NCBI GenBank assembly: GCA_964544755.1
Contig: CAZJDL010000006.1
Location: 1-51,699 of the forward strand
Direction: 5' to 3'
From: an uncultured Pseudomonadales bacterium
GTDB taxonomy: Bacteria; Pseudomonadota; Gammaproteobacteria; Pseudomonadales; JAUIET01
DNA: 51,699 nucleotides
The notes below the pieces were generated by a model, which made no database searches, was not told where the DNA came from, and saw nothing but the letters and a program-made list of their open reading frames with translations. Position 1 is the first letter of the stretch, and each line of letters opens with the position of its first letter. Below are positions 9,766-21,395 of this stretch, piece after piece. The position numbers and the translations under genes were made by a program.

Positions 9766-10776
9766 TCAACCGCCGGTCATATTCATAAAGCGCAGAATTT
9801 GCGGTTCCTGCTGCAGGTCGAAATGATGTTTCTCGGGCTTGAGCCGCATCGCGTCGACGATGGCATGTTCAAGTTGATCCTGGCCGCTAGCGCCTTCACG
9901 TAAAATACTTTTCAGGTCGATCGAATGCTCGTTGCCCAGGCACAACAGCAGGCGGCCTTCGACGGTGACCCGCACGCGGTTACACTGCGCGCAGAAGTTA
10001 TGGCTATGCGGGGAGATAAAACCGACTCTAATCGCGCTGTCAGCCATTTTGTAATACTTGGATGGTCCACCGGTGAAATCTTCGCTAGGCGACAAGGCGT
10101 AGTGTTGTGCGATTGAGCTGCGCACCTGGTCGCTGGAGCAGTATGTGAGAGCACGGTCATGATCGTCGATCAGCCCGAGTGGCATTTCTTCGATAAATGA
10201 AATATCCAACTTGCGGTCGCGACAGAAGTCGATCAAATTCATGATCTCGTCTTCGTTGCGACCGTTGAGAATAACGCTATTAATTTTGGTGTGCTCGAAG
10301 CCGGCGGCCTGCGCGGCTTCGATGCCGCGCAGCACGGTAGCCAGATCACCGGTGCGCGTTATTCTGCGAAAGCGGTCTGCCCTTAAGCTGTCGAGGCTGA
10401 TATTGAGGCGCGTTACGCCAGCTTGTTTGAGCTGCCGTGCGAGTTTGGGCAATTGCGAACCGTTGGTGGTTAAGGCCAGCTCGTGCAGATCATCGAGCGC
10501 GGCGATGTTTTCAACCAGCGACAGTATATTCTTGCGTATCAGCGGTTCACCGCCGGTCAGGCGAATTTTGTTTACGCCGAGTCCAACGAAAGCTTGCGCT
10601 AGCCGTGCAATTTCTTCCAACGATAGTATTTGAGCACGTGGTAAAAACTGCATATGTTCGGCCATGCAGTACACGCAACGGAAATCACAGCGGTCGGTGA
10701 CCGACAGGCGCACATAGCTAACGCGGCGCTGAAAATTGTCGACTAGCTGTGGTTTGATGGCAGCGTTCACTAACAC
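9766..10776 (-). CDS. moaA: GTP 3',8-cyclase MoaA
   Basis: [15 protein letters not shown] radical-SAM motif, [16 protein letters not shown]-terminal GG. Confidence 0.95.
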
Positions 10777-10778
10777 GA

Positions 10779-11243
10779 TTAATCCCGGCTGCGAATCACA
10801 ACGGTTTTCGCCATCTTGTCATGCCAGCCCTGCTTGCGTTTGTCGAAGGCTATCCACAAAAAGCCCAGCCCCAGCGGTAGCGAAGAAACGAAATAACCCA
10901 AATAGCGAATAAGCAGTTGCTTGTTGCTGGCCTTACCCAAGGTGTCGGCGTCCACGATGCTGGCGTTGACCAACATTTTCCCTGGCGTCGCGGCGAAATA
11001 ATACCAAAACGCCAGTACCGCTGCGGTGGGGAACACATAGTTGATGAACACATCCCAAATGCCGAGTACGGCGAACTGCTCGGCAGAGCCTTGCCATGCT
11101 CCAATGCCGTAAATGGCCATCATGGTTGGCACAACAACGAGCATGAGCGCCAGTGTATCAACCAAACTGGCCAACACACGCGAACCGAAGCCGACGTAGT
11201 CGTCGAGCGCGAGTTGTTCGATGGCTTGATCAATGTGATTCAA
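10779..11243 (-). CDS. RDD family protein
   Basis: [25 protein letters not shown]. Confidence 0.9.
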
Positions 11244-11419
11244 TATTGCCTGCCCAGACTTAAGTCCTGTCCCCGATAATAGCGCAACCCTACTGCGAAT
11301 GCATTGACCAGCGCGACCGCTGATGCCGGGCTGTTTAGGTGCCAGCAGGCTAAATTTATGAGTTGCGTGATGATTGGCGGAAGCGCCAGGAATCAGACCG
11401 GCTGTAAGTGGCAGCCGCC

Positions 11420-12610
11420 TTATTTGAAAACCGCTTCCGGAGTGCTATCGAAGTCCTTCTCCAGCGTGTTGATGGTGATACGCATGATTTCGCGGAATAC
11501 CTTGTCCCGGTCTTCATTGGCGACGATGGGGATACTGGCGCGGTCGGCTTCGGCGAGAAGATAGGACTGTAAGTCCCAGATTTCGTCGAAAGACTCCAGA
11601 TAACGATCGGCGCGGCGTTGCCGCACACGGCTACCCCGGCCCTGCAGTCTTTGCTGCAGCACTTTGCGCTTTAACACAGCCAACATGACGGGGATCACCG
11701 TGGCATCCTCGCCGGGTTTCAGTTGTTTCACAATGCTTGGTTGCACATGCACCCCTTCCACCACCAGGGAGACCTTTTCCCGCTGGGTACGCGCGATAAC
11801 CGCCTCGATGGCAGTCGAGAGCAAGTCGGCCTGGCTACAGTAGCCCCTGACCAGCAACGATTCCGGCACTTCACGCGGTTTTCCCTGCTGGCCGCGTAAG
11901 GCCTGCCAGGCGGTAAAAGACGATTTATGCAATACTGGCAGCAGTCGCTCGGGTAGCATCGTGCGCATGACTTCGCGCAGCATGTCGGTTGACTGCGTGC
12001 GCACAATGTCGAGACGGCTGGCCAACATGGTGGCGACCGAACTTTTACCACAACCGGCAGTGCCGCCGATCAAGAATATAAGCGACCGGCCGCTGTCGAC
12101 GAAGTCTCGCCAGATCAGCCAGCGTTTTGCCACTGCCGGACCCAGGTCGCGCGATTGGCGCAGATAGCGATAAGTCAGCCGAGAAAGACGCCGCGATGTG
12201 AGCTGTTCAATGCGCCGGTCAACAAGGTGTTTGTGTAACGTGGTCACAAAACGAGCAGCCTCGTCGCTTGCCAGGCCGATAGTCTCCAGGCCGCTCCGGT
12301 ATTGAAGCCGCGAGAACGGCACTAACTCGCCGTCGCGCTGTTGCACTTGAACGACATGGGGTTGGTCTTGTTGCTCGAAGCGGACGACGATACTATCTTT
12401 CTTGGCGTTCTTTAAGTGCGCAACGACCATGCGATGCAGGTCAGCGGTCGTGACCAGTGCTTTATCACCGATAGCAGAACGTATTTCGGTTGCTAATTGA
12501 AAAGCATCTTCGAAGGCCAAGCCTGCATCTTGCAATGAACGTGTCAGGATGCCCCGCAGAAAAGGCACTTTTGTGTGTTCATCCTGATCTTCCACGAGTA
12601 TTTTTGCCAT
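11420..12610 (-). CDS. 2-phosphoglycerate kinase-like P-loop kinase with two ATP-cone-like N-terminal repeats
   Basis: VPFLRGILTRSL / VPFSRLQYRSGL repeats; IGGTAGCGKS Walker A; STDMLREVMR, LHKSSF, VVEGVH motifs of Pgk2-type kinases. Confidence 0.75.
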   Translation of the reverse strand: MAKILVEDQDEHTKVPFLRGILTRSLQDAGLAFEDAFQLATEIRSAIGDKALVTTADLHRMVVAHLKNAKKDSIVVRFEQQDQPHVVQVQQRDGELVPFSRLQYRSGLETIGLASDEAARFVTTLHKHLVDRRIEQLTSRRLSRLTYRYLRQSRDLGPAVAKRWLIWRDFVDSGRSLIFLIGGTAGCGKSSVATMLASRLDIVRTQSTDMLREVMRTMLPERLLPVLHKSSFTAWQALRGQQGKPREVPESLLVRGYCSQADLLSTAIEAVIARTQREKVSLVVEGVHVQPSIVKQLKPGEDATVIPVMLAVLKRKVLQQRLQGRGSRVRQRRADRYLESFDEIWDLQSYLLAEADRASIPIVANEDRDKVFREIMRITINTLEKDFDSTPEAVFK

Positions 12611-12696
12611 GGATCTCCCTGTGTACGGATAGTTTGCGTGCCGGTCGGGTTTACTGGTTGTTATTGCTGCCAGGACATCAAAGCGATGGGTGTATT

Positions 12697-12881
12697 ATCC
12701 TAGAAACCGCAGTTGGATCACGAAAGTATGCACAAGCTCTTAATGCACCTGGAAAATTCGAAAAAGCTCTCATCACCAATAAGGTGACCACGAGTTTTTC
12801 GAATCTCCCATGCACATCAAGCTTTTTCATACGAATCAAGAGGCGCACATCTTTTTCGCGCCCAACTGCGGTTTCTAGGAT
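12697..12881. mobile_element. 185-bp palindromic MITE-like non-autonomous element
   Basis: Perfect 20-bp TIRs ATCCTAGAAACCGCAGTTGG (12697-12716 / 12862-12881), flanking TATT direct repeat (12693-96, 12882-85), internal hairpin TTCGAAAAAGCTC..TCACC-aataa-GGTGA..GAGTTTTTCGAA; partial copies at 4361, 5850 and 34861. Confidence 0.85.
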
Positions 12882-13531
12882 TATTCGTCGCTTGTGGCAG
12901 AAAAATCATACGGTATCTTGATTACGCTGCTGCGCACAAATCCGGAATGCACTCCCAGTTCGTTGTAACGTACACAGTTGCCGCCATCAAATAGCAATTT
13001 GCCGATATAGCGGTGTGATATTTTGTGTTTGAGGTGGTCGGCATAGTTCAGATTCAGAAAAGAGCAGATCAGCCCTCTGATGACGCCGGCATGGACGACA
13101 ATGAGAACAGTTTGCCGAGGATGTGCTGCGGCCACGGCGGAAATGAACTGCACGCTACGCCGTTGCATCTGGCGGAAACTCTCGCCGTCAGGATATACCA
13201 GGTCCGGGTCTTTTTTGTGTTTTGGGTAGTGCTCGGCCACCCACTTCTTTTTCTTCTTGAACAGTTTCCCGTAGTTCACCTCGTTTAGTGCGGCAGAAGT
13301 GTGGATCACGTTGATCCCCCGGCGCAGGGCATAGAACAGTGCGGTTTGCCGGGCCCGTTCCAGGTCGCTGGAGTAGACGGCGTCGAAGTCGAAGGCGCGC
13401 TTGCGCATGCGGGCATCCACGAAATCGACATCGGCGCGCCAGCCGCTGTGGCGAGGCGAGTCGCCCCAGCCCATAATCTCGTCCGCCGCGTTATTCAGCG
13501 TTTTGTAGTGTCTGGTGATAATCGCACGCAT
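12881..13531 (-). CDS. Histidine phosphatase / phosphoglycerate mutase family protein
   Basis: ITRHYKT (RHxxT), YSSDLERARQTA, LNEVNYG, PDGES, VVHAGVI. ATG at 13531; the longer ORF overlaps parA. Confidence 0.88.
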   Translation of the reverse strand: MRAIITRHYKTLNNAADEIMGWGDSPRHSGWRADVDFVDARMRKRAFDFDAVYSSDLERARQTALFYALRRGINVIHTSAALNEVNYGKLFKKKKKWVAEHYPKHKKDPDLVYPDGESFRQMQRRSVQFISAVAAAHPRQTVLIVVHAGVIRGLICSFLNLNYADHLKHKISHRYIGKLLFDGGNCVRYNELGVHSGFVRSSVIKIPYDFSATSDE

Positions 13532-13616
13532 TCCGCAAGCTACCAGTTTATTGTGAGGTTGTAAAAAGCCAAGCGGCTTATATTCGCGCCATGCCTGCCC
13601 GCTCGGCGCAATGGGA

Positions 13617-14363
13617 TTATGCGGCGAGTCTTGCCTTGATCTCTGCCCACAAGGCTTGGTAACAAAGTTGGGCGCGGCTGCCGGGTGCAAAATCGCCAAG
13701 CGGCGCACGATGGATGCCCATCCGTTCTACTTGACTGCTATAGGGAATGCGGGTTTCCAGCAAGCCTACCATGTAGTCCGGTGGGATATCGACGATTGCA
13801 CGCTGCAACTGCTTGCGCCGGTCGACCATATTGAAGAAGGGTAGCAGTTTGAGGCTATTAATTTTCTCCTTTTTGAAAAATTTGGCAACCTGCTGATAGG
13901 TGCGAAGCGACAGGGTGGTCGGTATGGTGGGCAGCAGCAAGGCGTCTGCCGCCGCGAACACATTCTCCGATGTGAGCGAGATACTCGGCGGGCAGTCGAG
14001 GAATACATACGCATATTCATTTTTAAAGGGCCGCAGCAACTTGCGCAGTTGCTGGGCTGGTTTTTTTCCGTGTTGCAGGAAGATGTCCATATTGCGATAG
14101 GAAAAATCTGCTGGCAAGAGGTCGAGGCATTCGAAGTCGGTGCCGTGGATAAAATCGTCCAGGTCTCTCTTGCCGCGCACCAGGCGTTTACCGCCGCCTT
14201 TGATTTTCGGTTTTATTCGAAAGTAATAGCTGGCGGCGGCCTGCGGGTCGAGGTCCCAGACCAACGTGGGCGCGCCTTCGCTGGCCGCTAGGTAGGCCAG
14301 GTTAATCGCGGTGGCCGTTTTACCTACGCCGCCCTTGATGTTATACGTGGCGATGACTTTCAT
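13617..14363 (-). CDS. Orphan ParA/Soj family ATPase
   Basis: KGGVGKT deviant Walker A, DLDPQ, LDCPPS; no parB; start overlaps the CHAD stop (ATGA). Confidence 0.92.
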   Translation of the reverse strand: MKVIATYNIKGGVGKTATAINLAYLAASEGAPTLVWDLDPQAAASYYFRIKPKIKGGGKRLVRGKRDLDDFIHGTDFECLDLLPADFSYRNMDIFLQHGKKPAQQLRKLLRPFKNEYAYVFLDCPPSISLTSENVFAAADALLLPTIPTTLSLRTYQQVAKFFKKEKINSLKLLPFFNMVDRRKQLQRAIVDIPPDYMVGLLETRIPYSSQVERMGIHRAPLGDFAPGSRAQLCYQALWAEIKARLAA

Positions 14364-15931
14364 AGTTCCTTTCCCTGATTTTCGGCCTGGTGCGTGGCAA
14401 ACAGCTCGCGGAAGCGGGCGCGGTTTTCCGGCCGGGAAAACTGCCTGAATCTGCCTGCAAATTCACGCCGCGCGTGCTGCTGGCGTCGTTCCAGGCCTTC
14501 GATCAGCATACCCATCGCCAGCAGTGTTGCGGCGGGCGTCGCGAGTTGCACCACCATTCGCTGGCTGTACTGCTGCAGCGCCGTTACCTGCACGTGGTAG
14601 TCCTGCAAGTCACCCAGGTTGACTTGCAGCGTTTTGAGCGCTTTTATGAGCTTCTTGATCTGTACCGGCGGAAACAGGCTTTGAAAGAACTCCATCAAAT
14701 AACGCAGCTTCTTGCCGCTCTTGCGCAGTTCATGCAGTGCTTCTGCCGGTGTGTCAGATTCTATCGCCCGGCCTTCCTTAATAACACGCCGGTAGGTTCG
14801 CCAGATGCGTTCACGGGCCAGGTCGAGGGTGGGTCGACGGGCGTTTTGCAGCGTGGAGCGTTCGCTTACTGGCGTATCCAAAAACTGGCGCCAGCCCTTA
14901 ACCAGCTGACGATAGCGAGCCGACTGTAGCACTTTTTGCAGCGCCTTGTGCTCGATTTGCCGTTGCCTGCCGAGAAAATCGCGCAGCGGCTCGATATCGG
15001 TGCGTACCGAGTCGAGCAGGCTGCCTTGATAGTCGTCGAATTTCAACAGCCAGACATCAAGGTCGCGCAACGGGCTGCTTACCTGGCCGAGCCAGGCAAA
15101 CTCGGCCCTATAGCGCTTGAGTATGCGTAGCGGTAATACCCCTTTGATCTGACCCAGCGCTGTACGGGTACGGCGTACTGCAACGCGAAAATCGTGTAGA
15201 AACTCGGTGTCTGTTCCTTTCAGAGTGCCGGTTTCATTGGCGACCATGACGTCAAGCAGTCGACGCAGAATGATTCGGCTTGTCTGGTCGGCGCGCCGCT
15301 CAGGTTGCAGTCGCAGGTTCAGTTTGGAGGAGTAATCACCCGGCGTAAGTCCGACCAATGCCAGCGCCGTCAGCACGGGATCCTCGGTTGTCGCCAGCAG
15401 GCCTATGTTTTCCAGTGTGTTGACGATTTTCGCGCAGGATTTTTGATAGCCCTTGATCGGCAGCACGATGACCCGATTGCCCAGCCGGTACGTCTTGCCG
15501 CCTTTGCGGCGTTGTACGGCGTTCTCCTCGATCAACAGGTGGACAACGGTTTTATCAATCTTATTGAGCACGCGCAGGACATGTGTCTTGCTTACAATCT
15601 GACACAGTGGAGTCAGTGCGCGCATTTCCAGCACGGGCTCAAGCTGCGCACGAAAAGGCCCTGCGGGAAGATCCCATACAAAGCGGGCAGGGGTCGACAA
15701 GACGATCTGCGCCTTGTTATCACTGCCGCCCAGGTCGCGCCGGATCAGTGTGTGTTTCTTGTTGTCTTGCTGTTCTTCCAGAACGGAGTTATTCGCATGT
15801 AGACGCCAGTCGAAAGTGTCGTAATAAATGCGCTGCACTATCCGCGGTGGTTGTGCAATCAAGCGGGTATTTTTCCGCAAGTTGGCCACTAGTTCATTGC
15901 TAGTGACCTGATCGGGAATAATGTATTGCAA
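14360..15931 (-). CDS. CHAD domain protein with CYTH-like N-terminal region (putative polyP-binding protein)
   Basis: YYDTFDWRL N-terminal motif; CHAD motifs DTEFLHDFRVAVRR, LRDLDV, LHELRKSGKKLRY..EFF, LGDLQD. Start uncertain (TTG 15931; ORF open to 16051). Confidence 0.88.
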   Translation of the reverse strand: MQYIIPDQVTSNELVANLRKNTRLIAQPPRIVQRIYYDTFDWRLHANNSVLEEQQDNKKHTLIRRDLGGSDNKAQIVLSTPARFVWDLPAGPFRAQLEPVLEMRALTPLCQIVSKTHVLRVLNKIDKTVVHLLIEENAVQRRKGGKTYRLGNRVIVLPIKGYQKSCAKIVNTLENIGLLATTEDPVLTALALVGLTPGDYSSKLNLRLQPERRADQTSRIILRRLLDVMVANETGTLKGTDTEFLHDFRVAVRRTRTALGQIKGVLPLRILKRYRAEFAWLGQVSSPLRDLDVWLLKFDDYQGSLLDSVRTDIEPLRDFLGRQRQIEHKALQKVLQSARYRQLVKGWRQFLDTPVSERSTLQNARRPTLDLARERIWRTYRRVIKEGRAIESDTPAEALHELRKSGKKLRYLMEFFQSLFPPVQIKKLIKALKTLQVNLGDLQDYHVQVTALQQYSQRMVVQLATPAATLLAMGMLIEGLERRQQHARREFAGRFRQFSRPENRARFRELFATHQAENQGKEL

Positions 15932-16200
15932 CCGTGTTCTGTGCGCAGCGCTCACGACCAGCCTATAGAAAGAAAAAGCGCAAGTAAATATCGACGGGCG
16001 CCAAGCGGTGAACCATTGCCGCCGACGCAGGCGCCCAGCACCGGTGACCACCGCAAGGGTATGAGATTCTCCGCGCCGCCTAAGGTCGGCGCCATTGATC
16101 TGATCATTCTGGGATAATGGGAGTCATGGTTGCTTAAACGCCTTTCAGTAGGCGGTATCTTGATAGCTGAGCTGTCAATTGTAATGCAAAGGTCGCCGTT

Positions 16201-17988
16201 CTATGCAGCTTCTTCGATCACTTGCAGGGGGTGCACCGCTTTGGCGATGCGTCTTGAGAAATAATAAATGCGCTTGAGCTTCTCGATAATGTCCATCTCT
16301 ATGGTGTAGTCGGCCAGCCGGTTCGGTTCTTGCGCTACCAGCCGCTGGTTCTCATGCATGGCGGCTGATTCCATCAATTGGTTGATTTCTGTTTTCATGT
16401 CGATAACGCTGCGCGCCGATTGCTGGTCATTCAGCATTAAGGCGAGTAGAGCCTGGTCTGCTGTGGTTGCTATGACGCTATGAAGATTCTTAAACACTGC
16501 CTGGGTGGGCTCGCTGATGGCTACACTTTCTTCGATGCATTTCAAGCCAAGCGCGGCCAGGTCTGTTTCGATGACGTCGCCGATATTCTCCAAATCGTTG
16601 CTGGCAGCCAAGAGCTTGGTCAGTGCACTGGTTTGCTCTTCGGTCAGTGCCCTGCGGCTGATGTGGCCGAGATAGGTCACGATATGGCCGTGCAGCGTAT
16701 CAACCTTATCATCAATCTCGCGAACCTCCCGCAGCGCCTCGCGGTCGGCAGACAGGATAGCCGGCATAATTTTCTGCAGCATCTCTTGCACGTGTTCGCC
16801 CATATGGCGGAGTTCGAGACGCACCTGCTGTAGCGCAAGCGATGGTGTGTCGAGCAGTTCCTCGCTAAGATATCTGGGTTTGGTCATCACCACTTCTTCG
16901 ATCGGCTTGTCTGGCACCAGCTTTTCCACCAGCCGCGCCAGCTGGCCGGCGAAGCCGATAAAGATCAAGGTGTTGGCGATGTTAAAGGCTGTATGCGCGT
17001 TGGCGATCTGGCGCGGCACTTCGGCGGCCAGCCGATCGATGCCGGAAAGGTTGGCATGTGTCGGTGAAAACACGGTGACGAATTGTGCCAGGTAGGGAAT
17101 CAAACCGATCCAGAGCAGTACGCCGAAGACGTTAAACAGGACGTGCGCCATGGCAGCGCGGACGGCCTCCCTGGGTTTGCCGATGGAGGCGAGAATGGCG
17201 GTAACGCAGCTGCCGATATTGGCGCCGAGGGCGAGCGCGATCCCGGCCGGCAATGTAATGAAACCCTGCGACGCCATCACAATCACGATGCCGGTGGTCG
17301 CCGACGAGGACTGTACCAGCCCGGTAAAAGCCGCCGCAACCAGAATGCCTATCATCGGGTTTTCCATGCTGGTCATCAGGTCCAGGAATGGTTGGTAACT
17401 GCGCAGTGGCGCCATGGCTTCACTCATGACGCTCATGCCGAAGAAAATCATGCCCAGGCCCATCAGCAGGGCGCCGTAGTGTTTGATTTTTTCTCGTTTA
17501 GCGATGAACAGCATGCCAAAGCCGGCTGCAATCATCGGCAATGCCGCCTTGGTCACCTTGAAGGCGACAATCTGTGCGGTGATGGTGGTGCCGATATTGG
17601 CGCCCATGATAACGCCGATCGACTGCGACATAGACATCAGGCCGGCCGTAATGAAACCCACGACCAATACGGTCGTAACCGACGAAGATTGAATCACGGC
17701 GGTGACGAAGGCGCCGGTCGCGGCACCCATAAAGCGGTTGCTGGTCAGCCTTGCGAGGATAATGCGCATGCGTTCGCCGGCGGCTGCCTTCAGCGCCTCG
17801 GCCATTTGCTCCATGCCGAACAGAAATAGGGCCAGGCCGCCAGCCAGCTGCATGCCCATGTCCCACCAGGGCATTTCTGTTTCCGTGGCAACGGCAGCCG
17901 CAGCCGGCACTGCCAGTACGGCGCACAGCAACAGCGGCGCCAGCGGTGTATTCTGTGCCGCACCGAGCAGGGTGGGCCGCCTTCTCAT
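16201..17988 (-). CDS. Na+/Pi cotransporter family protein (NptA/YjbB-like) with C-terminal PhoU-like domain
   Basis: Two QSSS..GANIG repeats, GGLALFLFGM, DLENIGD. Confidence 0.92.
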   Translation of the reverse strand: MRRRPTLLGAAQNTPLAPLLLCAVLAVPAAAAVATETEMPWWDMGMQLAGGLALFLFGMEQMAEALKAAAGERMRIILARLTSNRFMGAATGAFVTAVIQSSSVTTVLVVGFITAGLMSMSQSIGVIMGANIGTTITAQIVAFKVTKAALPMIAAGFGMLFIAKREKIKHYGALLMGLGMIFFGMSVMSEAMAPLRSYQPFLDLMTSMENPMIGILVAAAFTGLVQSSSATTGIVIVMASQGFITLPAGIALALGANIGSCVTAILASIGKPREAVRAAMAHVLFNVFGVLLWIGLIPYLAQFVTVFSPTHANLSGIDRLAAEVPRQIANAHTAFNIANTLIFIGFAGQLARLVEKLVPDKPIEEVVMTKPRYLSEELLDTPSLALQQVRLELRHMGEHVQEMLQKIMPAILSADREALREVREIDDKVDTLHGHIVTYLGHISRRALTEEQTSALTKLLAASNDLENIGDVIETDLAALGLKCIEESVAISEPTQAVFKNLHSVIATTADQALLALMLNDQQSARSVIDMKTEINQLMESAAMHENQRLVAQEPNRLADYTIEMDIIEKLKRIYYFSRRIAKAVHPLQVIEEAA

Positions 17989-18485
17989 TTTGGCTCCCCC
18001 TTATCGCGCTGTTGGTCTTTCCTTGTCTTGACGACTAGCACAGAGATCGGTGCCAGGCGCACGACTTGTTCGGTCTTTGCTCCCAGCAACAAGCGCGGCA
18101 GCCCGGTGCGTCCCAGACTCCCCATGACGATGAGCCGGGCGTTGATCTTTGCCGCTACTTCGAGAATCCGGTTAACCGGTAAGCCAACCACCAGCATGGG
18201 CGTTGCCTTTTTCAGAGTGGCACGTGTAGGGTGTTTTTCCTGCATCTTTCGCATGAAGTCATTCAGCATATCTCTGGCGACGTCTTCCAGCCGGTTCAAC
18301 AGCTTCTTGCTGCCTTGCAGCTCATAATAGCCGGGCGCCTCAGCCAGATCGTGGGCGACGTGCAGCACGGTAAGTGACGCATCCATCGTTTCGGCCATTT
18401 CAATTGCAGCAACCAAAGCGGCTTCCGAGTGTGGTGAAAAATCTATGGGGACCAGCACTGGGCGGGTATCTTTGCGGGCCGCCAT
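17985..18485 (-). CDS. Universal stress protein
   Basis: VLVPIDFS, LIVMGSLGRTG..LLG..EQVVRLAPISVLVV. Confidence 0.92.
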   Translation of the reverse strand: MAARKDTRPVLVPIDFSPHSEAALVAAIEMAETMDASLTVLHVAHDLAEAPGYYELQGSKKLLNRLEDVARDMLNDFMRKMQEKHPTRATLKKATPMLVVGLPVNRILEVAAKINARLIVMGSLGRTGLPRLLLGAKTEQVVRLAPISVLVVKTRKDQQRDKGEPK

Positions 18486-18637
18486 TTTGGACTCCTTTGA
18501 GGCAACAACGCCGCAAATTTTCGTCAGTCAACCAGCCGCACTCTCCGCCAACCGGCTAGGCTCGGTTAAGGCGCGATGCGGTAAACAACGGGTTCTGCGG
18601 CCAGGCCAAGCCTGGCATTGGTGTTTAACCGCTGCAA

Positions 18638-20920
18638 TCAGCCGTTGTTCTTCAGGCGATTGTGAAAATGATTGAGCAGTTTCCTGCGCAGCTTCGACTG
18701 CCGGTGCTTGCTTGCTGCCGTCATACGTTTGTGCGCCAGCTCGATGAAGGTTTCCTGTGGGCCGAACGCTTTTTTTCCTGTTACTGCCTGCCGTTCAACA
18801 TAACTTCCATCCGACTGCATTTCCCACACATGGCGCTGGCTGGAAAGCTGCACATCGAGTATCAGGCGCAGCTCTTGTTGGAGCTTGTCATTTTCTACCG
18901 GAGCGACAACTTCCACTCGGCTTTCAAGGTTGCGTTTCATCAGGTCCGCCGAGCCGATGAAATATTCTTCAGTGCCGGCGTTCTTGAAATAGTAGATGCG
19001 TGCATGTTCGAGGAAGCGCCCTACGACGCTGATCACTCTGACACTTTCGGTCAGCCCGGGAATGCCCGGGCGCAGGCGGCAGGTGTCGCGCACGATAAGA
19101 TCGACGCTAACGCCGGCCGTGGCGGCGCGATACAAGGCCTTGGTGATATCCACGTCTTCAAGGGCGTTCATCTTGAGCTGGATAAGACCGGGCGACTGTT
19201 TCGAGTGCAGCTTGATCTCGCGGTCAATTTTCTCGATCAGGGCCTTCTTCAGGGTAAAGGGCGAGGTCAGTAACTTGCGGTAACGCGGCGATGGTGAATA
19301 GCCGGTAAGCGCGTTGAACAGTTCGGTCAGGTCCTGGGCGATGGCTTTATCATTGGTCAACATGCCAAGGTCACTGTACAGATGCGCCGTGCCGGCATGG
19401 TAATTACCGGTGCCAATGTGGACATAACGTTGCAGGCCGGCGTAGTCTTTGCGCACCACCAGAATAACCTTGCTGTGGGTCTTCAAGCCGACGACACCAT
19501 ACGTGACATGAATGCCGGCCTGTTCCAGCCGCCGCGCCCAGCCAATATTGGCGGCCTCGTCGAAGCGGGCTTTCAATTCGATCAGCACGGCCACCTGCTT
19601 GCCGTTACGCGCAGCCTCGACTAGCGAATGAATGATGTTGCCCTTAGCCGATGTTCGGTACAAAGTCATCTTGATGGCATGTACCTTGGGGTCTTCGCTG
19701 GCCGTGCGCAGGAAGCGTTCCACGCTGCTGCTGAAAGACTCGTACGGATGCTGCAGCAGCAGTGCTCCGCGTTCCCGAATGATATGGAAAATATTGCGCG
19801 AATCATGCGCCAGCCGGGTGTGGTCGATGGCATTGTGTGGCACGTCGTGCAGGGCTGGAATATCCAGATCGGCGATTTCGAACAGGTCGCGCATGGCCAT
19901 CAGTGACCCGGTTTCGAATACGTCGGCGTCTTCGTCCAGGCCCAGTTCGGCGGCCAGCATACCGCGATGTTCCGCAGTCATTCCCGGTGCAACCTGCAGG
20001 CGTACGATGGGCGCAAAATGGCGGTCGCGCAGTTCCGATTCAATCATTGCCAGCAGGTCGTCCGCCTCTTCTTCCTCGACTTCGACATTGGCGTTGCGAG
20101 TCACCCGAAACAACTCGCAGGAAACAATCTCCATACCGGGAAACAGCAAATCGAGATTGTTGGTCAGCACATCGTTAAGGGCCACGAAAGTGTTGCTGGC
20201 GCCGACCCGCAGGAAGCGTGGCGCGATATCTTTCGCTACCGGCACTTTCAGCCGGGCAAGAAGGCTGCTGCTGCCACCCGGGTAGCGCAGCGACACCAGC
20301 AGGTTTAGCGTAAGGTTGGAAATAAACGGGAATGGATGCCCCGGATCCATGGCTAACGGGGTCAGCAACGGGAAGATATTGGCAATAAAGTGACTGCGCA
20401 GCGTATCTTGCTCCTGTTTCTTCAGATCGGCATAGTCAACGAGATTGATCCCCTCCGCTGCAAGCAAGCCGTGCAGCTCGTGAAAAGTCTGGTTTTGTTC
20501 TTTATGCAGCTCGCGCACCGCGGCCTGGCATTCCGTTACCTGTTGAAGGGGCGTGCGTCCGTCGATAGTGGGGGTGCGAATGCCGGCGGCGATTTGTTGT
20601 TTCAAACCGCCGATGCGCTTCATGAAGAACTCATCGAGGTTATTGCTGACGATGGCGATGAATTTGACCCGCTCCAGCAACGGTGTCTGCGGGTCGGCGG
20701 CCATATGCAGCACGCGCCGGTTAAATTCAAGCCAGGTCAGCTCGCGGTTGAGATACAGCTCTGGCGCATCGAGATCAAATTTCTTGTCCTTCGCCACGCG
20801 CGCACCGGGTTTTCTTTGATTGCGCCGCGCAACCGTGGCAGATTTCGGCGCCGAAGACCTGGCCTCGGTCGCTTCAGTGGTTGACTGTGGTTGTGGTGTG
20901 TCTGCTGCAGCCTTTTCCAT
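18638..20920 (-). CDS. ppk1: Polyphosphate kinase 1
   Basis: NRELTWLEFN, NLDEFFM, HPFPFISN, IKMTLYR, ELKARFDE..NI, KTHSK, GRFLEH, SADLM.RNL. Confidence 0.97.
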   Translation of the reverse strand: MEKAAADTPQPQSTTEATEARSSAPKSATVARRNQRKPGARVAKDKKFDLDAPELYLNRELTWLEFNRRVLHMAADPQTPLLERVKFIAIVSNNLDEFFMKRIGGLKQQIAAGIRTPTIDGRTPLQQVTECQAAVRELHKEQNQTFHELHGLLAAEGINLVDYADLKKQEQDTLRSHFIANIFPLLTPLAMDPGHPFPFISNLTLNLLVSLRYPGGSSSLLARLKVPVAKDIAPRFLRVGASNTFVALNDVLTNNLDLLFPGMEIVSCELFRVTRNANVEVEEEEADDLLAMIESELRDRHFAPIVRLQVAPGMTAEHRGMLAAELGLDEDADVFETGSLMAMRDLFEIADLDIPALHDVPHNAIDHTRLAHDSRNIFHIIRERGALLLQHPYESFSSSVERFLRTASEDPKVHAIKMTLYRTSAKGNIIHSLVEAARNGKQVAVLIELKARFDEAANIGWARRLEQAGIHVTYGVVGLKTHSKVILVVRKDYAGLQRYVHIGTGNYHAGTAHLYSDLGMLTNDKAIAQDLTELFNALTGYSPSPRYRKLLTSPFTLKKALIEKIDREIKLHSKQSPGLIQLKMNALEDVDITKALYRAATAGVSVDLIVRDTCRLRPGIPGLTESVRVISVVGRFLEHARIYYFKNAGTEEYFIGSADLMKRNLESRVEVVAPVENDKLQQELRLILDVQLSSQRHVWEMQSDGSYVERQAVTGKKAFGPQETFIELAHKRMTAASKHRQSKLRRKLLNHFHNRLKNNG

Positions 20921-21016
20921 TGTTAGTTCATCCTGTTCTTTTATTGGCGGTGCTCAACGTCATCTTTCTATTAGATAGGCTTTGCCGTTGTTTGGCTACC
21001 GAAATTCGGGCCTATG

Positions 21017-21030
21017 TTGATCTGGATCAA
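21017..21030. promoter_or_regulatory. FNR/Anr-type box between divergent ppk1 and CNNM genes
   Basis: Perfect TTGAT-CTGG-ATCAA consensus. Confidence 0.7.
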
Positions 21031-21395
21031 CCAGCGTAAGTGAGTCAGTGTTGTAGAAGTCCGGCTGCACCGCCAAAGTGGTGAAACAAACTATTATACA
21101 GTTGATGTGGATCGCGACTTGCCAAACAGGTTGGCGACTGGGTTGGTAGACAATATTTTATTCCCCTTGCAGCCTCGAATCTCACTAAATGGATATTGCT
21201 TCACGTTTGCGGCACAAACCCGAGCCGGAATTGATTTTAATCGATTACTGCTTGCGCTAGCGGAGGCATCCTCATCGCGAGGCGTTATCGGATGTGCTTG
21301 TTGCAATGGTGACGTGTTAAAGTGGAATACTAGGTGGTGGTAAATGTTCGCAGAGCGGAAAGAAGTGGGCATTTGGCCACTCGCGGGAACAGGTA

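Follow-up and report, generated by a model that had tools for sequence, protein, structure and literature searches.

What does a partition-type ATPase do when the gene in front of it encodes not a DNA-binding partner but a protein of a polyphosphate (polyP)-binding family? This question is raised by a locus in a 51,699-nucleotide (nt) stretch of DNA from an uncultured Pseudomonadales bacterium (assembly GCA_964544755.1, contig CAZJDL010000006.1, positions 1 to 51,699; hereafter, the window), in which a gene for an orphan ParA/MinD-type ATPase directly follows, and overlaps, a gene for a CHAD-domain protein. A preliminary description of this locus had proposed that the CHAD protein is an adaptor linking polyP granules to the ATPase, which would space or segregate them over the nucleoid. 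The analyses described here indicated that the CHAD-ParA pairing is well beyond chance. The two proteins very probably work together in polyP biology, and there is roughly an even chance that they form a ParA-type system for positioning or partitioning polyP granules, with the CHAD protein as the cargo adaptor. The pair comprises the following features, which include a match to the CHAD protein of Chlorobium tepidum (CtCHAD).

14360..15931, minus strand: two-domain CHAD protein of 523 amino acids (aa), the proposed granule adaptor; Pfam CHAD at 198 bits versus a cut-off of 25.6
15317..15931, minus strand: N-terminal beta-rich domain of the CHAD protein, approximately residues 1-205; resembles CYTH/TTM proteins by fold only (Foldseek)
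14363..15316, minus strand: long CHAD domain, approximately residues 206-523, with polyP-binding basic residues; PDB 3E0S/6QV7 (CtCHAD) at E 6e-45
14360..14363, minus strand: ATGA, the overlap of the CHAD stop and the ParA start; TCAT on the plus strand
13617..14363, minus strand: ParA/MinD-type ATPase of 248 aa, from a distinct CHAD-linked subfamily; Pfam AAA_31 at E 5e-33, and CbiA
14316..14336, minus strand: deviant Walker A motif KGGVGKT, ParA residues 10-16; invariant in 41/41 aligned ParAs
14166..14231, minus strand: family-specific basic loop YYFRIKPKIKGGGKRLVRGKRD, ParA residues 45-66, including R49; R49 is invariant in linked ParAs

The overlap of the two genes, already reported in the preliminary description, was verified on the minus strand: the ATG of ParA occupies 14363-14361 and the TGA of the CHAD gene 14362-14360, with the four letters ATGA common to both. 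An overlap of 4 nt would couple translation of the CHAD and ParA proteins. The CHAD gene was read from a TTG at 15931, giving 523 aa, rather than from an alternative GTG at 15955, giving 531 aa; the TTG start fits because homologs of 522 to 524 aa start at the equivalent residue.

Conservation of the CHAD-ParA pair

A scan of one genome per species yielded 57 loci containing relatives of the window ParA, with identities of 43 to 84%. A CHAD open reading frame (ORF) was located directly upstream and on the same strand in 41 of these loci, and no CHAD gene was detected near ParA by tblastn at an E value of 1e-5 in the other 16. The stop and start of the linked genes exhibited an identical 4-nt overlap in 30 of the 41 loci, lay within 2 nt of each other in 5 and overlapped by 23 nt in 2, while the other 4 loci appeared to be frameshifted. 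Linked loci were derived from records titled Gammaproteobacteria, Methylococcaceae, Actinomycetes, Nitrospirota and Deltaproteobacteria. The module is also carried by L003 and L006 (records titled Halobacteria archaeon) and by L054 (Klebsiella pneumoniae); all three group with gammaproteobacterial ParA rows, and these bins are probably mislabelled. The unlinked loci consisted of a clade of 13 Alcanivoracaceae-type rows and three others. In the Alcanivoracaceae-type clade (L036-L038, L040, L041, L044 and L047-L053; ParA identity of 43 to 47%), a divergent DUF4062 gene was present upstream in all four of the loci checked, and the ParAs have a Gly in place of the R49 described below.

A quick maximum-likelihood tree of the ParA proteins, drawn rooted on the very distant Soj of the window's own genome and used only loosely for its topology, placed the unlinked rows within the linked ones. 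The tree required 4 label changes as compared to 14.1 in shuffles, with none of 500 shuffles reaching 4, and CHAD linkage looks ancestral in this ParA family. Pairwise distances among 34 ParA-CHAD pairs were correlated between the two proteins (Mantel r of 0.82; none of 2000 permutations matched this value), a correlation that shows co-inheritance as a unit and not strict co-evolution.

Two further samples were searched. The first consisted of 151 genomes of the window's order, including that of the window, and utilized a profile of the linked ParAs at E<=1e-40 together with Pfam CHAD. The ParA family was detected in 33 of these genomes (35 places) and CHAD in 43, with the two being adjacent in 13 of the 33 ParA-bearing genomes. 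Adjacency was a property of the high-scoring ParAs: 12 of the 14 places with a score of at least 294 bits adjoin a CHAD gene, as does 1 of the 21 weaker places. Of the two unlinked high-scoring places, one is in an 83%-complete genome without a CHAD match and the other has an internal TGA and is without CHAD. The second sample consisted of 301 genomes from the phylum of locus L042. The ParA family was detected in 75 and CHAD in 118 of these genomes, and in 58 of the 75 ParA-bearing genomes the gene immediately upstream of ParA, in the same orientation, encoded CHAD. The pair is thus present in 58 of the 301 genomes, among them the one carrying the gene for the crystallised CtCHAD. The distance from the end of the Pfam CHAD match to the ParA start was near-constant at 177 to 212 nt, with one value of 412. 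Among the remainder of the 75 genomes, 6 have a two-domain CHAD protein encoded elsewhere and 11 are without a strong CHAD match. In 13 further loci of this phylum that were examined, the stop-to-start distance ranged from -4 to +36 nt and was a 4-nt overlap in 5. The preliminary description had held that its proposal would fall if close ParA homologs were not linked to CHAD or ppk genes; with linkage to CHAD recurring in all three samples, the proposal withstood this check.

The partner as a candidate polyP-binding protein

Pfam CHAD matched all 34 of the aligned partner proteins, and Pfam CYTH at E<=0.01 matched none. The AlphaFold 2 (AF2) model of the window CHAD protein had a predicted local distance difference test (pLDDT) value of 92.6, and its C-terminal helical domain could be superposed on CtCHAD 6QV7/3E0S with a Foldseek TMt of 0.91 to 0.94. 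Foldseek matches of the N-terminal domain were to thiamine triphosphatase, SaTTM and YgiF (5A60), with E values of 1e-4 to 1e-12, identities of 12 to 14% and TMt values of 0.34 to 0.64, those for thiamine triphosphatase and SaTTM being 0.5 to 0.64; the match to YgiF spans the full length of the protein. A YxDTxDxRL motif is kept in this domain (D38, D41, R43 and L44). The first 30 residues of the partners (strand 1) contain no conserved acidic or basic residues and no ExExK motif, which we take to be the N-terminal motif of CYTH domains and which was seen in the ParA-CYTH fusions described below. The N-terminal domain is probably a degenerate, non-catalytic CYTH domain. As this CYTH-like domain has neither the Pfam CYTH signature nor ExExK, no catalytic output is evident in the window module.

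According to the available portion of PMC6537752, a crystallised fragment of CtCHAD (residues 208-522) binds polyP with nanomolar affinity, does not bind double-stranded DNA or single-stranded RNA, and suffers large losses of binding upon mutation of H253, R256, R260, R296, R418 or Y419. These six central polyP-binding residues correspond to H246, R249, R253, R289, R410 and Y411 of the window protein and were invariant in 34/34 partners. For six further residues mutated in CtCHAD, the window protein has one identical residue (K433), four basic residues and one difference (W377). The window CHAD protein has an isoelectric point (pI) of 10.3. These findings strengthen the suggestion, made in the preliminary description, that the CHAD partner is a polyP binder. 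In vivo, localisation to polyP granules has been shown only for CHAD proteins other than this one, according to work cited in the accessible parts of PMC9239181 and PMC13556221.

CtCHAD itself is encoded beside a ParA of this family. In locus L058 (genome G313), the gene for a 522-aa protein, residues 207-522 of which match PDB 3E0S/6QV7 at an E value of 6e-207, has its stop 2 nt upstream of a ParA gene of the family, the product of which is 49% identical to the window ParA, and ppk1 is located two genes upstream. Because the L058 gene adjoins a family ParA, the best-characterised CHAD protein is a member of the module. CtCHAD (Q8KE09; 3E0S/6QV7/6QVA) shares with the window protein the 522- to 523-aa two-domain architecture and the long CHAD domain, with 31% identity overall; in the passages of PMC6537752 consulted, only residues 208-522 were studied, as a polyP binder, and neither the adjacent ParA nor a function for the N-terminal domain is mentioned. 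YgiF, an Escherichia coli tripolyphosphatase (5A60), has the same domain order as the window protein, with a CYTH-type barrel followed by CHAD, but differs in that the window N-terminal domain is without the Pfam CYTH signature and ExExK and in that the window CHAD domain is of the long type, as defined in the portion of PMC6537752 consulted. Locus L058 also encodes (10534-11352) a 273-aa protein of short Cys/Asn/Gly-rich repeats, without a Pfam match, between ppk1 and CHAD; this repeat protein was also found in L059, L060, L061, L065 and L067, with several copies in L065.

The ParA protein as an orphan ATPase

Residues K10, G11, G12, V13, G14, K15 and T16 and residues D37, D39 and D123 were invariant in 41/41 aligned ParAs. 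D37 and D39, within DLDPQ, are the switch/Walker A' aspartates, and D123, within VFLDCPP, is the Walker B aspartate. Also invariant was R183, located in a DxRR(K) motif; its counterpart in the alignment is the DxR of Soj, the arginine of which presumably binds DNA. The nearest solved relatives were the chromosomal ParA of Myxococcus xanthus (8RAY; E of 6e-23), Thermus Soj and Helicobacter pylori Soj, with McdA and MinD being more distant. Consistent with this, the AF2 model (pLDDT of 84) had Foldseek TM values of 0.81 to 0.84 to 8RAY, 2BEK and 1WCV, followed by matches to MinD, McdA, BcsQ and FleN.

The window ParA shares with Soj/ParA proteins (8RAY and 1WCV) the fold, deviant Walker A motif, switch aspartates, Walker B motif and C-terminal helix, but differs in having an extra basic loop containing R49, a pI of 9.6 (6.1 for the Soj of the same genome) and no IPRNVR arginines. 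The basic loop, FRIKPKIKGGGK at residues 45-66, is predicted to be flexible, with AF2 pLDDT values of <50 at residues 53-64. R49 was invariant in 54/54 CHAD-linked ParAs, and a Gly was present in 13 of the 16 unlinked ParAs. DNA binding by the window ParA is plausible.

As no NCBIfam model reached its cut-off, this ParA subfamily is without a curated name. The ParA_partition model NF041546 scored 74.5 bits versus a cut-off of 180, the MinD model TIGR01968 scored 36.8 bits versus 212.9, and the scores for RepA, SopA and PrgP were far below their cut-offs. MinD has a C-terminal amphipathic membrane anchor, whereas the window ParA ends with a helix that aligns to the last one of Thermus Soj and is therefore without an added membrane anchor.

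Three other ParA-like genes were detected in the genome, encoding a Soj (contig C80), a small ParA (C63) and an Mrp (C24). The sole ParB_N match of the genome is on C80, adjoining the Soj-type ParA. The window contained no match, at up to 2 mismatches, to the parS-like site TGTTNCACGTGAAACA, which we take to be the parS consensus, other centromere types not having been searched for, and no ParB, MinC or MinE was found among nine neighbouring proteins scanned. ParABS systems require an adjacent ParB-type centromere-binding protein, whereas the window ParA is flanked by the CHAD protein and a His_Phos_1 protein. Since the only ParB of the genome is on C80 and the window is without a parS-like site, the window ParA is a true orphan adjoining CHAD, and the lack of parB/parS or minC/minE at this locus, as noted in the preliminary description, was borne out.

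Gene fusions and phosphate genes in the flanks

Longer homologs of the ParA protein were examined among the best 120 of 374 detected at E<=1e-30. A Pfam CYTH domain was present in 19 of these 120. All of the 10 CYTH forms that were scanned consisted of ParA (residues 1 to approximately 250), a linker and a canonical C-terminal CYTH domain scoring above the cut-off, and all of the 6 that were inspected had ExExK and kept the R49 loop. Two of the ParA-CYTH forms were found again, with unchanged length, in other assemblies. These fusions appear to tie the subfamily to triphosphate/polyP domains in a second, independent way, and point to a CYTH-type domain as the ParA-proximal module. About half of the best 120 longer homologs have extensions without a Pfam match.

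Both CHAD and ParA domains were listed for single chains in 21 of the best 120. In most of these chains, the last CHAD helices are replaced by an Arg/Pro/Gly-rich stretch. A stretch of this kind is what a frameshift or a misassembly of GC-rich DNA would produce, and the CHAD-ParA chains were therefore not counted as fusions. Four of them look clean (P0124, P0141, P0149 and P0156), and one form, of 852/854 aa, was found in two assemblies. At G090:C2:555685-557394, the CHAD match runs across two frames, the first part of which lies with the ParA match in a single open frame of 832 aa, due to either a frameshift or a fusion.

Within the flanks examined by tblastn, ppk1 (polyphosphate kinase 1) was present in 8 of the 41 linked loci, 6 of the 13 further linked loci and none of the 16 unlinked loci. 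The two genes on each side of the pair were tallied for the 41 linked loci. The 70 upstream ORFs included PhoH-PIN (6), PPK1 (4), H+-PPase (3), His_Phos_1 (2) and PhoD (1), and the 77 downstream ORFs included His_Phos_1 (4), PPK1 (2), Ppx/GppA (2), CYTH (2), PPK2 (1) and CHAD (1). No universal third gene was found in the flanks of the linked loci, and the ORFs flanking the pair in L058-type loci recurred only in close kin. In one gammaproteobacterial clade, the position just ahead of the pair is repeatedly occupied by a gene for PIN-PhoH, a phosphate-starvation-inducible ATPase, and in L055 a PIN-PhoH gene lies directly before an unlinked ParA.

Relation to known systems

In the searched literature, from which subscription journals and supplements were excluded, no ATPase was found to be described as positioning polyP granules. 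To this extent the claim of novelty in the preliminary description stands, but the gene cluster as such has been drawn before: PMC6416229 and PMC10892726, in the portions available, depict a conserved folD-ppk-parA-CHAD cluster in Acidithiobacillus in which ParA is labelled as a plasmid/chromosome partition protein without further comment, leaving the cluster uninterpreted. In the excerpt consulted of one of these two Acidithiobacillus papers (PMC10892726 and PMC6416229), the CYTH-CHAD protein is interpreted to be an adenylate cyclase. Judged by the published figures alone, the Acidithiobacillus ppk-parA-CHAD cluster is similar to the window module. In the accessible parts of PMC11894788, PMC13052382 (a 2025 review) and PMC13556221 (2026), proteins for granule placement are described as unknown outside AlgP in Pseudomonas, and ATP dependence as open; PMC13052382 and PMC13556221, to the same extent, describe CHAD proteins as being without a known function beyond polyP binding. 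A conserved CHAD-ParA pair that is a candidate for translational coupling is a concrete candidate for granule placement, for the use of energy and for a role of CHAD proteins.

The closest parallel in organisation is McdA/McdB, in which, as in the window, an orphan ParA-type ATPase without ParB/parS is located beside a protein of a cytoplasmic inclusion; the proposed spacing logic is also alike. An orphan ParA beside a cargo binder, as in McdAB-like pairs, was found here, with CHAD being adjacent and conserved and CtCHAD binding polyP. The pairs differ in that the cargo in the present case would be an inorganic polymer granule and in that the adaptor would be a folded, very basic CYTH-like/CHAD protein whose gene is upstream of, and overlaps, that of the ATPase. 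The window ATPase is also nearer to Soj/ParA (8RAY, E of 6e-23) than to McdA (6NOO, E of 1e-9). AlgP is associated with polyP granules and influences how evenly they are spaced over the nucleoid (available sections of PMC9239181 and PMC13052382), a role like that proposed for the window pair, but is described as a DNA-binding protein that resembles histone H1 and has no ATPase activity, which sets it apart. If the proposal were true, the ParA/MinD repertoire would be extended by an inorganic-polymer cargo and by a folded adaptor of a new type. The hypothesis is directly testable because the module includes the crystallised CtCHAD from a cultured organism and because a similar Acidithiobacillus cluster has been published.

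Proposed mechanism and alternative explanations

The following sequence of events can be envisaged. PPK1 makes polyP, which condenses into granules, as is established for this enzyme family. The 523-aa partner would coat the granule through its long CHAD domain, as suggested by its homology to CtCHAD and the retention of the binding residues. ParA would bind ATP and form a sandwich dimer, for which the deviant Walker A, switch and Walker B motifs, all intact, argue. The dimer would be held on a polyanionic matrix, in which role the nucleoid is the most likely candidate. The granule-bound partner might then contact ParA, probably via the degenerate CYTH-like N-terminal domain, triggering ATP hydrolysis. 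The resulting gradient of ParA depletion would space the granules and pass them to both daughter cells, by analogy to the action of McdAB on carboxysomes. A complex prediction for ParA and the full CHAD protein, using alignments, scored 0.66, but one control with an unrelated partner scored 0.57, and the prediction was counted neither for nor against contact. Of the interpretation offered in the preliminary description, the conserved linkage to CHAD and the retention of polyP-binding residues are findings; contact between the proteins, binding to the nucleoid and spacing or segregation of granules are steps that we infer. A fuller version of this scheme can be advanced only tentatively, its likelihood falling a little short of even: the pair would be the first dedicated ATP-driven ParA/MinD system for polyP granules and a widespread one, the CYTH-like domain would dock onto and activate the ATPase, ParA-CYTH fusions would be single-chain versions and the R49 loop would read a polyanion, possibly polyP and not DNA.

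Several observations weigh against a granule-positioning role. The ParA family is not exclusive to CHAD, being unlinked in 16/57 loci, 22/35 places in the order sample and 17/75 genomes of the second phylum. The locus counts overstate independence, as most of the loci are from metagenome bins and many of them are kin. Only 14 of 54 linked loci have ppk1 nearby. The best 120 longer homologs include 15 SBP_bac_3 fusions and 7 HAD/S6PP fusions, and the wider ParA family therefore has other partners. The N termini of the partners start at strand 1 and are not preceded by a conserved peptide, disordered and basic, such as those by which other ParAs are activated. In alignment to Thermus Soj, neither arginine of the Soj IPRNVR motif is kept (IPYSSQVER in the window). 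R238 of the M. xanthus ParA, assigned by our own mapping to this motif, is needed for non-specific DNA binding according to the available part of bioRxiv 10.1101/2025.03.14.642875. As the IPRNVR arginines are not kept, DNA binding by the window ParA cannot be read from homology. There are also precedents in other organisms, as given in the excerpts available: spacing of polyP in Synechococcus elongatus is independent of McdA, its only ParA-family ATPase (PMC13556221), granule formation is hardly altered when phosins are deleted in several organisms (PMC13556221), and the protein used by Pseudomonas aeruginosa for granule spacing, AlgP, is no ATPase (PMC9239181).

The alternatives differ mainly in what the ATPase would act upon. 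The pair could control the biogenesis or turnover of polyP granules, with ParA as an ATP-dependent switch for the CHAD coat, for granule number or size or for access of PPK1/PPX. The linkage and the recurrent polyP theme fit this explanation equally well, the fusions to canonical, probably catalytic CYTH domains and to HAD phosphatases suggest phosphate chemistry, and other ParA/MinD members are assembly or regulatory switches, BcsQ and FleN being among the structural matches. However, the CYTH-like domain of the partner has lost its signature (Pfam CYTH in 0/34 and no ExExK), leaving no evident catalytic output, and the closest ParA relatives are DNA-segregating Soj/ParA proteins; control of biogenesis or turnover is considered unlikely, while deserving of attention. 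Another explanation is that polyP itself, and not DNA, is the surface to which ParA binds in its ATP state via the R49 loop, with the CHAD/CYTH partner as a regulator, and that the system organises polyP and the nucleoid or recruits factors. The unusual basicity of this ParA (pI of 9.6 versus 6.1 for its own Soj), the flexible basic loop with an R49 that is invariant only in CHAD-linked members and the absence of the Soj IPRNVR arginines are all consistent with this idea, but a basic surface suits DNA equally and the DxRR(K) motif is kept, with R183 invariant. Binding of ParA to polyP as its matrix is thus regarded as quite improbable.

A granule-directed function is also to be set against two explanations in which polyP has no part in the action of ParA. 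A cassette for partition of DNA of a mobile element or chromosome region, with CHAD as a centromere binder replacing ParB, would account for a small operon partner beside ParA, as in plasmid par loci, and for a module tree that cuts across phyla, suggestive of horizontal transfer. Such a cassette is very hard to reconcile with the invariant polyP-binding residues, with the binding by CtCHAD of polyP but not of double-stranded DNA or single-stranded RNA (PMC6537752, in the part available), with the phosphate genes in the flanks, where no plasmid or integrase family was among the 25 commonest on each side, and with the absence of parS from the window. That the CHAD and ParA genes are mere neighbours with unrelated functions might be argued from those family ParAs that are without an adjacent CHAD gene. 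The order, strand and, mostly, the 4-nt overlap are nevertheless kept across several phyla, the ParA and CHAD distances co-vary and fusions join ParA to the related CYTH domain, making a chance neighbourhood scarcely credible.

Other genes of the locus

The pair belongs to a run of minus-strand genes in the order ppk1, usp, Na/Pi-PhoU, CHAD, ParA, histidine phosphatase and 2-phosphoglycerate kinase (2-PGK)-like kinase. Apart from the pair, these are as follows.

18638..20920, minus strand: ppk1 (polyphosphate kinase 1, 760 aa); Pfam matches to each of the four PPK1 domains at E 1e-37 to 1e-69
17985..18485, minus strand: universal stress protein (usp, 166 aa); Pfam Usp at E 1.5e-28
16201..17988, minus strand: Na/Pi cotransporter with a fused PhoU domain (595 aa); Pfam Na_Pi_cotrans at E 8e-64 and PhoU at E 6e-15; NCBIfam Na_Pi_symport
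12881..~13531, minus strand: branch-1 histidine phosphatase; Pfam His_Phos_1 at E 7.5e-31; starts 85 nt after ParA
11420-12610, minus strand: ATP-cone/2-phosphoglycerate-kinase-like kinase; NCBIfam at 255 bits, below the cut-off of 343

The positions of ppk1 and of the histidine phosphatase gene agree with the preliminary description, which had placed the pair downstream of ppk1 on the same strand and a histidine phosphatase behind parA. The genome contains one CHAD gene and one PPK1 match, both of which are in this locus. The usp and Na/Pi-PhoU genes overlap by 4 nt (17985-17988), and the genes on the ppk1 side are therefore also tightly packed. A promoter and terminator scan of 11200-21300 detected no minus-strand site in the intergenic gaps.

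Among the related loci, a histidine phosphatase gene comes directly after ParA in none but the nearest, L001 and L002. His_Phos_1 accounted for 6 of the 147 flanking ORFs of the linked loci; it is an accessory gene outside the core of the module. A 2-PGK-like kinase and a phosphoglycerate-mutase-like phosphatase follow ParA in the window, L001 and L002, and are located elsewhere in L004 and L007. The kinase and histidine phosphatase may constitute a small pathway for phosphometabolites that accompanies the polyP locus. With possible source samples excluded, hydrothermal vent metagenome runs X6-X10 (studies P3 and P4) were found to hold a fraction of 0.54 to 0.89 of the sampled words of positions 12881-16051.

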